A stretch of 19,354 nt of DNA, taken from positions 1-19,354 of the IMG/VR virus record IMGVR_UViG_2537561977_000019. One strand, written 5' to 3'. How positions within the stretch are numbered: the stretch's first letter is position 1; every line of letters starts with the position of its first letter. Origin of the DNA: a virus. Taxonomy: Duplodnaviria > Heunggongvirae > Uroviricota > Caudoviricetes. Below are positions 896 through 1,205 of the stretch, in pieces. The notes under the pieces are model-generated. The model was not told where the DNA came from. It made no database searches and saw only the letters and a list, made by a program, of their open reading frames with translations. Position numbers and translations under genes: made by a program.

Positions 896-970
896 TGGAG
901 CGGGCAGCGGGAATCGAACCCGCATCATCAGCTTGGAAGGCTGAGGTAATAGCCATTATACGATGCCCGC
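896..970 (-). tRNA. tRNA-Gly (anticodon UCC)
   Basis: Reverse complement folds as a canonical cloverleaf: acceptor GCGGGCA/TGCCCGC, anticodon stem TCAGC/GCTGA with loop CTTCCAA, T-arm GCGGG-TTCGATT-CCCGC, encoded CCA. Matches my memory of E. coli glyT. Confidence 0.85.
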
Positions 971-973
971 ATA

Positions 974-1049
974 TGGTGCCGACTACCGGAATCGAACTGG
1001 TGACCTGATGATTACAAGTCAGTTGCTCTGCCTGCTGAGCTAAGTCGGC
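974..1049 (-). tRNA. tRNA-Thr-like (anticodon UGU), with an imperfect anticodon stem
   Basis: Acceptor GCCGACT/AGTCGGC and T-loop TTCGATT are intact, with encoded CCA; the anticodon loop CTTGTAA gives UGU. With a 7-nt loop only 3 Watson-Crick pairs form in the anticodon stem (ACTGA vs TCATC). Confidence 0.65.
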
Positions 1050-1051
1050 GC

Positions 1052-1128
1052 TGGCCCACCACCGAGGACTCGAACCTCGCACCGTCAACTTAGAAGGTTG
1101 ATGCTCTATCCGGATGAGCTAGTGGTGG
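1052..1128 (-). tRNA. tRNA-Arg (anticodon UCU)
   Basis: 77-nt cloverleaf: acceptor CCACCAC/GTGGTGG (unusual C1-G72), anticodon stem TCAAC/GTTGA with loop CTTCTAA, T-arm CGAGG-TTCGAGT-CCTCG, encoded CCA. Confidence 0.7.
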
Positions 1129-1129
1129 T

Positions 1130-1205
1130 TGGTGGCCCTTGCTGGACTTGAACCAGCGACCTGGCGATTATGAGTCGCTCGCTCTCACCACTGAGCTAAA
1201 GGGCC
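1130..1205 (-). tRNA. tRNA with CAU anticodon (Ile2/ileX-like, or elongator Met)
   Basis: Acceptor GGCCCTT/AAGGGCC, anticodon loop CTCATAA, T-arm GCTGG-TTCAAGT-CCAGC, encoded CCA. Close to my memory of E. coli ileX; Ile versus Met identity cannot be decided from sequence alone. Confidence 0.75.

Follow-up and report, generated by a model that had tools for sequence, protein, structure and literature searches.

Phage tRNA genes have long been put down to codon supply. Work published between 2023 and 2026 shows that many of them replace host tRNAs destroyed by defence nucleases, and so far this work concerns virulent phages (T4 and T5) and one temperate phage, HK446. The locus considered here is an array of four tRNA genes located between the antiterminator gene Q and the lysis genes of a lambdoid E. 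coli prophage. The analysed DNA, referred to as the window, is the whole 19,354-nucleotide (nt) stretch of IMG/VR record IMGVR_UViG_2537561977_000019 (Caudoviricetes). The array is, with high confidence, a genuine and ordinary lambdoid Q-to-lysis tRNA cassette of a kind already known. Its tRNA-Thr gene (anticodon UGU) carries two linked substitutions at the top of the anticodon stem, G42U and U43C, and these may have turned it into an allele that escapes tRNA nucleases.

P2-OLD, the nuclease classically known to exclude lambda, exerts its killing by cleavage of the host tRNA-Thr(UGU) (Govande et al., NAR 2025, PMC12445682). In thrU, which encodes this tRNA, cleavage takes place between positions 28 and 29 and between positions 40 and 41, inside the paired C28NG30 and C40NG42 motifs, and extra expression of thrU gives no protection. 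In the same study, resistance of a phage tRNA-Thr(UGU) to OLD needed two features together: the CNG motif had to be changed and the anticodon stem shortened, as by U43A (PMC12445682). The AriB nuclease of the PARIS system also cuts thrU between positions 40 and 41, and the substitution U16C impairs cleavage, as tested on tRNA-Lys (Belukhina et al., PMC12409363). In a 2026 preprint, the list of tRNAs depleted by OLD opens with Thr(UGU) and Gly(UCC) (10.64898/2026.07.10.737580). On the phage side, tRNA pairs that include a tRNA-Thr(UGU) are encoded downstream of Q in SfI, Sf6, ST64T and P21 (PMC3636060). Experiments show that temperate phage HK446 encodes an OLD-resistant Thr(UGU), which rescues sensitive phages (10.64898/2026.07.10.737580). 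Rescue from PARIS was obtained with T5 tRNA-Thr(UGU) when it was expressed alongside T5 tRNA-Lys(UUU) and tRNA-Asn(GUU), and T5 tRNA-Thr gave partial rescue from OLD (PMC12409363; 10.64898/2026.07.10.737580).

Structure and possible role of the tRNA-Thr allele

The Thr gene of the window is identical to host thrU at 72 of 76 positions. Of the four changes, U16C (window position 1034) and U20C (1030) lie in the D loop, and G42U (1008) and U43C (1007) at the top of the anticodon stem; the remainder of the molecule is intact. The anticodon stem, ACUGA/UCAGU in thrU, becomes ACUGA/UCAUC, in which A27.C43 and C28.U42 are mismatched and three canonical pairs are left. A preliminary description of the locus, made from the letters alone, had folded this stem with three canonical pairs, and the comparison with thrU confirms it. 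The 3' CNG motif, CAG in thrU, reads CAU here, and C28 becomes unpaired; the 5' CUG sequence is unchanged, so the alteration is one-sided. Both resistance-type features are present in the window gene, namely a changed CNG motif, on one side, and loss of the 27-43 pair. The D loop carries C16 in place of U16, and the Thr-Gly block, which forms the 3' half of the array, matches the first two tRNAs of the preprint's OLD-depleted list. The mismatch A52.C62 in the T stem is not special to this gene, because host thrU has it as well.

Outside the altered stem, the gene retains U8, A14, G18, G19, A21, U33, G53, T54, psi55, C56, A58, C61 and the CCA end. The anticodon loop (CUUGUAA) and the pairs G1-C72 and C2-G71 are the same as in thrU. 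These two pairs and the anticodon loop are the threonine identity elements for E. coli ThrRS. The preliminary description had raised the possibility of a pseudo-tRNA. This is not the best reading of a gene whose invariant nucleotides, loop, acceptor identity pairs and CCA end are intact, which scores 59.5 bits with the Rfam tRNA model and which is labelled tRNA-Thr in RefSeq.

By analogy with the published resistance determinants, the G42U/U43C gene is read as a nuclease-escape allele, which is favoured over neutral decay. The preference is a tentative one, held with slightly less than even confidence. In the proposed course of events, the array of the lambdoid prophage would be transcribed from its own promoter just upstream of ileZ, the first gene of the array. 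After induction, Q-modified RNA polymerase would transcribe it as well, moving from Q in the direction of the lysis genes. The tightly packed precursor would be cut by RNase P and 3' exonucleases, yielding four tRNAs with CCA ends. Once charged, these would raise the capacity to decode AUA, AGA/AGG, ACA and GGA, all of which are scarce in the genes of the host and enriched in those of the prophage. The Thr(UGU) species would be a derived thrU product in which 28-42 and 27-43 are left unpaired and the 3' CNG motif is lost through the linked G42U/U43C change. It would be a poor substrate for P2-OLD-type Toprim tRNA nucleases and perhaps, through U16C, also for PARIS AriB. ACA decoding would then survive when a P2-OLD-type defence is triggered.

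The integrity of the gene also suits a reading in which it encodes a fully functional codon-supply tRNA, the A.C and C.U oppositions being stacked in the helix and tolerated with no adaptive meaning. All identity and invariant nucleotides are kept, the RefSeq label is that of a normal gene product, ACA is enriched 1.7- to 3.8-fold in prophage genes, and the neighbouring ileZ has A27.C43 too. However, this reading leaves unexplained why a linked change affects two adjacent positions on several backgrounds while the other stem pairs are intact, as well as the match to published nuclease-resistance determinants. It is considered doubtful.

Altered decoding, which the preliminary description had also suggested, is regarded as very improbable. 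It would arise either from a loose 27-43/28-42 end of the stem or from a shifted register (pairs 28-45 to 31-42, with a 10-nt loop), and could take the form of relaxed wobble or frameshifting. The sequence UCAUCAGG made by the change permits a four-pair shifted stem that is 2.9 kcal/mol better than the three-pair cloverleaf arm. Moreover, mutations at 27-43 reportedly affect first-position wobble, an effect ascribed to work by Schultz and Yarus in 1994. The shifted register would, however, pull G45, G46 and C48 from their tertiary contacts, and the sister allele UCACC is unable to form the shifted stem, yet shows the same distribution pattern. No recoding signal turned up, and no search for one was made.

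Distribution of the allele and of the array

The thrU-type anticodon arm occurs at 6398 places in 5421 complete E. coli genomes, which corresponds to about 977 prophage copies. Among IMG/VR contigs, linkage between the two stem substitutions is complete: all 13 contigs with a base other than G at position 42 have C43, and none combines G42 with a changed position 43. Position 42 is U in ten or eleven of these contigs and C in two or three, and neither base pairs with C28. The 42/43 variants sit on at least four D-loop haplotypes (U16/U20, C16/U20 and C16/C20 among these) and in at least six array architectures. A near-isogenic Arg-Thr-Gly block in strain FDAARGOS_944 differs solely by GT versus TC at Thr 42-43. 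The combination C16/C20 is also common in prophage Thr copies with intact stems and may be a neutral polymorphism. The TCACC form was not found in complete E. coli genomes, and a scan of species-representative genomes found no 42/43 variant.

These patterns bear on the alternative that the gene is a hypomorphic or decaying copy. In that case G42U/U43C would be a neutral or mildly harmful lesion that arose once and was recombined among arrays, and the product would fold poorly and contribute little. ACA is already read by host thrU. Nevertheless, no single mutants were seen, among approximately 120 sampled prophage copies there are no other variants that break the anticodon stem, and the two different bases found at position 42 both block pairing. 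The window-type allele is otherwise undamaged and is kept in up to three prophages of one genome; strain FDAARGOS_943 has three copies. Furthermore, functional phage tRNA-Thr(UGU) species with mismatches at 27.43 or 28.42 exist (RB14 type, T5 and HK446). Decay is judged possible but unlikely.

A number of observations weigh against nuclease escape, and several of them are what decay would produce. The first group concerns distribution and gene condition. Seventeen of 5426 genomes carry the window allele, at 30 places in all, which amounts to about 3% of the thrU-like copies in prophages, and the TCATC sequence of the allele is absent from all 50,697 deposited phage records. Two allele-bearing lineages have extra damage (G24A; or U12C, A58G, U59C and C74U) and no RefSeq tRNA label. 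The window-type allele is clean, and the M9-type and SHP24-type alleles with these extra disruptive changes are few and non-independent samples. Together with the degraded Gly gene adjacent to the allele in sister prophages, such lesions have the appearance that would be expected of relaxed selection.

The second group concerns folding. Minimum-free-energy folding was set aside as a test of function because host thrU itself forms no cloverleaf in silico; consequently, constrained nearest-neighbour energy differences were used. The constrained cloverleaf weakens by 4.5 kcal/mol, from -21.5 in thrU to -17.0 in the window Thr, and an alternative hairpin at -24.9 kcal/mol is favoured over the cloverleaf by 7.9. 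Taken by itself, the anticodon stem-loop loses its predicted stability, and the Rfam score drops by 14 bits from the 73.8 of thrU.

The third group concerns the nucleases. The 5' C28U29G30 motif is unchanged, and the AriB cleavage site UAAUCA is kept exactly, with no substitution from U36 to A41, the cut falling between C40 and A41. The three-pair stem is shorter than that of any tested resistant tRNA. Searches of the window with Pfam, PADLOC and PHROGs recognised no trigger of OLD such as Gam, and no OLD, PARIS or further tRNA nuclease. OLD escape cannot be the general purpose of the cassette, because most prophage copies have the thrU-type arm and should be OLD-sensitive. Finally, recurrence on several backgrounds is no proof of selection, because gene conversion could have spread a 42/43 dinucleotide that arose in a single mutational event. 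The CCAGGTC in the neighbouring ileZ possibly served as the template that gave UCACC, from which one transition leads to UCAUC.

Should the allele resist OLD, a change of two neighbouring bases in a captured host tRNA would suffice for escape, and ordinary lambdoid prophages of E. coli would be evolving in this way. The near-isogenic pair, GT versus TC at 42-43, would then be a minimal probe of how Toprim nucleases read the anticodon stem. Should it not, the case reduces to a slightly damaged, well-documented example of a common type of prophage tRNA cassette. A wider conjecture, held with low confidence, is that the G42Y/U43C alleles are natural escape variants from P2-OLD-type Toprim tRNases, exposing an arms race between lambdoid phages and P2-like prophages. 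It further supposes that the chief role of the widespread Thr-Gly block, and of the Lys(UUU) or Asn(GUU) tRNAs that accompany it downstream of Q, is counter-defence, and that RNAs of the argN scaffold (described below) with 5-6-nt loops could be decoys. Lys(UUU), Thr(UGU) and Asn(GUU) are PARIS targets, and Lys and Asn are also the partners of the Thr-Gly block downstream of Q.

The exact 411-nt region of the array is present in 6 complete E. coli genomes, and arrays covering at least 80% of this region in at least 525 of 5426. The cassette moves between prophage backbones as a module, because array and flanks are 100% identical in the six genomes, whose Q regions differ. The whole window occurs in no complete E. 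coli genome, the best cover being 83% at 94.5% identity. Three architectures predominate among 120 IMG/VR contigs that carry a gene like thrU: Thr-Gly in 45, Ile-Lys(UUU)-Thr-Gly in 35 and Ile-Arg(UCU)-Thr-Gly in 16, where the last figure takes in RefSeq locus L001 and the window itself. In representative genomes, the Thr-Gly block with its 3-nt spacer is found in Citrobacter, Enterobacter, Pseudescherichia, Shigella, E. ruysiae, Yokenella and Serratia. The block was also seen in a Chryseobacterium sp. assembly (L152) and in a 423-nt contig of Corallococcus exercitus (L159); these belong to unrelated phyla, and both cases are most likely contamination.

Anatomy, codon use and surroundings of the array

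ARAGORN calls exactly four tRNA genes (Table 1); they lie within 896-1205 of the window, on the minus strand in every case. Each is well above the gathering score of 29 of the Rfam tRNA model, with E-values from 1e-10 to 1e-14, and the CCA end is encoded in all four genes. In transcript order the genes are CAU, Arg, Thr and Gly, separated by spacers of 1, 2 and 3 nt. The preliminary description had given four tRNAs with these anticodons and with 1-3-nt spacers, placed between Q and the lysis genes. ARAGORN and Rfam bear this out and supply the strand, which was not given there; Q and the holin gene lie on that same strand on either side of the array.

Table 1. Positions of the tRNA genes and of other features in the window
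Feature	Position	Strand	Evidence and remarks
tRNA-Gly (anticodon UCC)	896-970	minus	ARAGORN; Rfam tRNA model 64.9 bits
tRNA-Thr (anticodon UGU)	974-1049	minus	ARAGORN; Rfam 59.5 bits; RefSeq label tRNA-Thr
tRNA-Arg (anticodon UCU), argN-type scaffold	1052-1128	minus	ARAGORN; Rfam 56.4 bits
tRNA-Ile2 (anticodon CAU), ileZ type	1130-1205	minus	ARAGORN; Rfam 71.2 bits; RefSeq label tRNA-Ile
Sigma-70-type promoter motif	1215-1243	minus	-35 TTGCTG (1243-1238), 17-nt spacer, -10 TATCAT (1220-1215)
N6/N4 DNA methyltransferase gene	1246-2304	minus	Pfam PF01555, E = 6e-44; immediately upstream of the array
Antiterminator Q gene	2910-3692	minus	Pfam PF03589, E = 1.3e-53; upstream end of the late operon
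Terminator-like hairpin with T-run	618-637	minus	Consensus match only; about 260 nt downstream of the array
Strong terminator-like hairpin (10 pairs, T-run)	257-283	minus	Consensus match only; just upstream of the holin gene
P21-type class II holin gene	1-216	minus	Pfam PF04971, E = 1.5e-35; first lysis gene downstream
Dam-type DNA methyltransferase gene	6211-6897	minus	nin-like region
Rha/Ash-family open reading frame	8391-9554
C4 antisense RNA	9006-9093	minus	Rfam 82.3 bits
isrK Hfq-binding RNA	9118-9194	minus	Rfam 60.1 bits
156-amino-acid open reading frame	18360-18830	minus
SocA/Panacea antitoxin-domain open reading frame	18827-19354	minus	Pfam E = 2e-20

The four genes do not share one origin. 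The tRNA-Gly(UCC) is identical to K-12 glyT at 75 of 75 positions. The CAU tRNA matches ileZ of an Stx2a phage at 75 of 76 positions and K-12 ileX at 70 of 76; relative to ileX it has one compensated pair (6-67), and A27.C43 replaces G27.U43. The Arg(UCU) gene has C1-G72, G73 and the anticodon loop CUUCUAA, with no non-canonical pair in the Rfam alignment. Its loop is that of argU, whereas its stems differ from argU by many paired changes. Compared with Stx-phage argN (anticodon UCG), 62 of 77 positions are identical, and the acceptor and T arms, C1-G72 and the UUCGAGU T loop are in common. The names ileZ and argN are taken from GenBank annotation. The preliminary description had called the C1-G72 pair unusual. 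The pair is indeed present, but it is a scaffold trait of Stx-phage argN and of every tRNA in the second slot. The comparison with host glyT, thrU and ileX and with phage ileZ and argN, which the same description had proposed, places Thr and Gly with the host and Ile and Arg in phage lineages. A single host operon as the origin of all four tRNAs is rejected, as only Thr and Gly are host-like. The cassette is a phage ileZ-argN module fused to a Thr-Gly module captured from the host thrU-tyrU-glyT-thrT operon.

The two neighbours of the Thr gene show features of their own. The second gene of such arrays has a conserved argN-type scaffold, in which C1-G72 and the D, T and acceptor arms are kept with paired changes, and a highly variable anticodon loop; 25 distinct sequences were counted among 85 copies. 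The loops include CUUCUAA (Arg UCU, the window gene), CCUUUAA (Lys UUU, with C33 for U33; L006:7270-7346) and CUUCGAA (argN). There are also many loops of 5-6 nt, which are unable to be standard anticodon loops, for example CCAGGU (L044/L064), UAAAU (L011/L045), UUAAU (L087/L120) and CACGGU (L139/L143). RNAs of this last kind are possibly decoys or decaying genes. As for the Gly gene, the prophage Gly(UCC) keeps paired CNG motifs (C28A29G30 and C40U41G42) and A37, the P2-OLD substrate signature, and the window copy shows no escape change. In sister prophages with the same Ile-Arg-Thr(UCAUC) block, the glyT copy has decayed (L125:3059-3129, the second prophage of E. coli RMDEC332, and L138). 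In this decayed copy the loop UUCCAAG has become UUACAGG, so that the gene is called "Val", the 3' acceptor strand has a deletion, and CCA is lost.

With regard to codon supply, the four anticodons read AUA (after lysidine modification), AGA/AGG, ACA and GGA. Codon use was compared with a host reference of 45 genes (14,330 codons) from a strain carrying the identical array. Late-gene use was taken from L001, the prophage of strain CFSAN029787 with the identical 411-nt array, because no complete genome holds the whole window. In the window genes ATA is enriched 4.7-fold, AGA 11.4-fold, ACA 1.7-fold and GGA 1.9-fold. Among the 61 codons ordered by enrichment, ATA, AGA, ACA and GGA rank 3, 2, 12 and 8 in the window genes, 9, 1, 7 and 4 in the late genes of L001, and 3, 2, 4 and 6 in its early genes. 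Over the window genes and the L001 prophage together, the cognate codons are enriched 1.7- to 12-fold over the host, with ranks of 1-12. AGG, an expected target of tRNA-Arg(UCU), is enriched too. The rare-codon reading in the preliminary description is upheld for all four cognate codons, and the outcome it had set against its own view, a normal Thr call with a standard stem and no codon enrichment, did not occur, since the stem is weakened and the codons are enriched. Such enrichment supports codon supply without proving it, because it is typical of AT-richer mobile DNA.

A sigma-70-type promoter motif stands directly upstream of ileZ, with 9 nt between the -10 hexamer and the 5' end of the tRNA. 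A simple promoter scan missed it, because the -35 hexamer agrees with the consensus at just 3 of 6 bases. The pattern TTG[CA]NN-N16-18-TA[TA][TCA]AT-N7-11-tRNA is present in 34 of 40 distinct ileZ-type upstream regions, that of the Stx phage included, where shuffled sequences lead to an expectation of 0.005. The hexamer columns are far better conserved than the diverging flanks. This conservation points to a putative promoter dedicated to ileZ, from which the array would be expressible in the lysogen. Read-through from the Q-dependent late promoter would add to expression after induction. Together with the encoded CCA ends and the intact cloverleaves, the conserved motif lends indirect support to the predicted expression, processing and aminoacylation of the tRNAs.

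Upstream of the array on the minus strand lie, in this order, the N6/N4 methyltransferase gene, an open reading frame (ORF) of 75 amino acids and Q; the methyltransferase neighbour is also seen in Stx phages and in RefSeq records. It is one of two DNA methyltransferases in the prophage, the other being of Dam type. Downstream, the gap of about 680 nt between array and holin gene holds the two terminator-like hairpins. In the related prophage of E. coli SHP24 (L128:3512-3722), the small RNA STnc100 (140.8 bits) follows the array; no STnc100 match was found in the 680-nt gap between Gly and holin in the window.

The remaining window is a lambdoid early region with a cI-like repressor, a cII-like gene, a Rha/Ash gene, replication genes, Dam, RusA, KilA-N and DUF968. 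C4 and isrK RNAs are found inside or next to the Rha/Ash-family ORF, and their company with it indicates a control module of the P1/P7 antirepressor type. At the end of the prophage, the SocA/Panacea ORF is followed by a 156-amino-acid ORF that matched no family when compared with Pfam, PADLOC and PHROGs; the two may form a PanA-type toxin-antitoxin pair.

Comparison with known systems

The host thrU-tyrU-glyT-thrT operon provides the closest relatives of the 3' half of the array, a near-copy of thrU (72/76) and glyT itself (75/75). In the window, tyrU and thrT are missing, the Thr-Gly spacer is 3 nt, and the block is fused behind phage ileZ and argN.

As a cassette, the window array resembles the ileZ-argN-argO cluster of Stx phages (e.g. 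Stx2a_F723, AP012533). Both lie downstream of Q, often adjoining a DNA methyltransferase, and upstream of stx or the lysis genes, with the same strand logic. They share ileZ (75/76), the C1-G72 argN scaffold (62/77) and the promoter motif upstream of ileZ. The second gene has anticodon UCG in the Stx phages and UCU here, and the spacers are 7-13 nt there and 1-3 nt here. In contrast to the Stx-phage cluster, the window has the Thr(UGU)-Gly(UCC) block from thrU/glyT in place of argO, and no toxin gene downstream.

As a tRNA, the window Thr resembles the OLD-resistant Thr6 and Thr21 (Govande et al. 2025, PMC12445682) in its UGU anticodon, its altered CNG motif and the loss of the 27-43 pair. The solutions differ, since Thr6 changes G30C/C40G and keeps four pairs, whereas the window gene changes G42 and U43, keeps the 5' CUG and has three pairs. 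The RB14-type Thr gene has the Thr6 anticodon arm, with A27.A43 and CUC/GAG. With T5 tRNA-Thr(UGU), the window gene shares an identical C40-A41-U42-C43 and a pyrimidine-pyrimidine mismatch at 28.42. However, T5 keeps G27-C43, has G39, which removes the AriB site UAAUCA (cut before the last A), and has a different D loop, and its sequence is unrelated to thrU.

In genomic setting, HK446 offers a parallel: like the window, this temperate lambdoid phage has its Thr(UGU) gene between Q/pR' and holin, with a 27.43 mismatch, in its case G27.A43, and with the CNG motif absent. The Thr genes of HK446 and SfI belong to a diverged lineage that shows 26 differences relative to thrU, and they have Asn(GUU) as their partner, whereas the window Thr is thrU with four substitutions, for which resistance is suggested by analogy.

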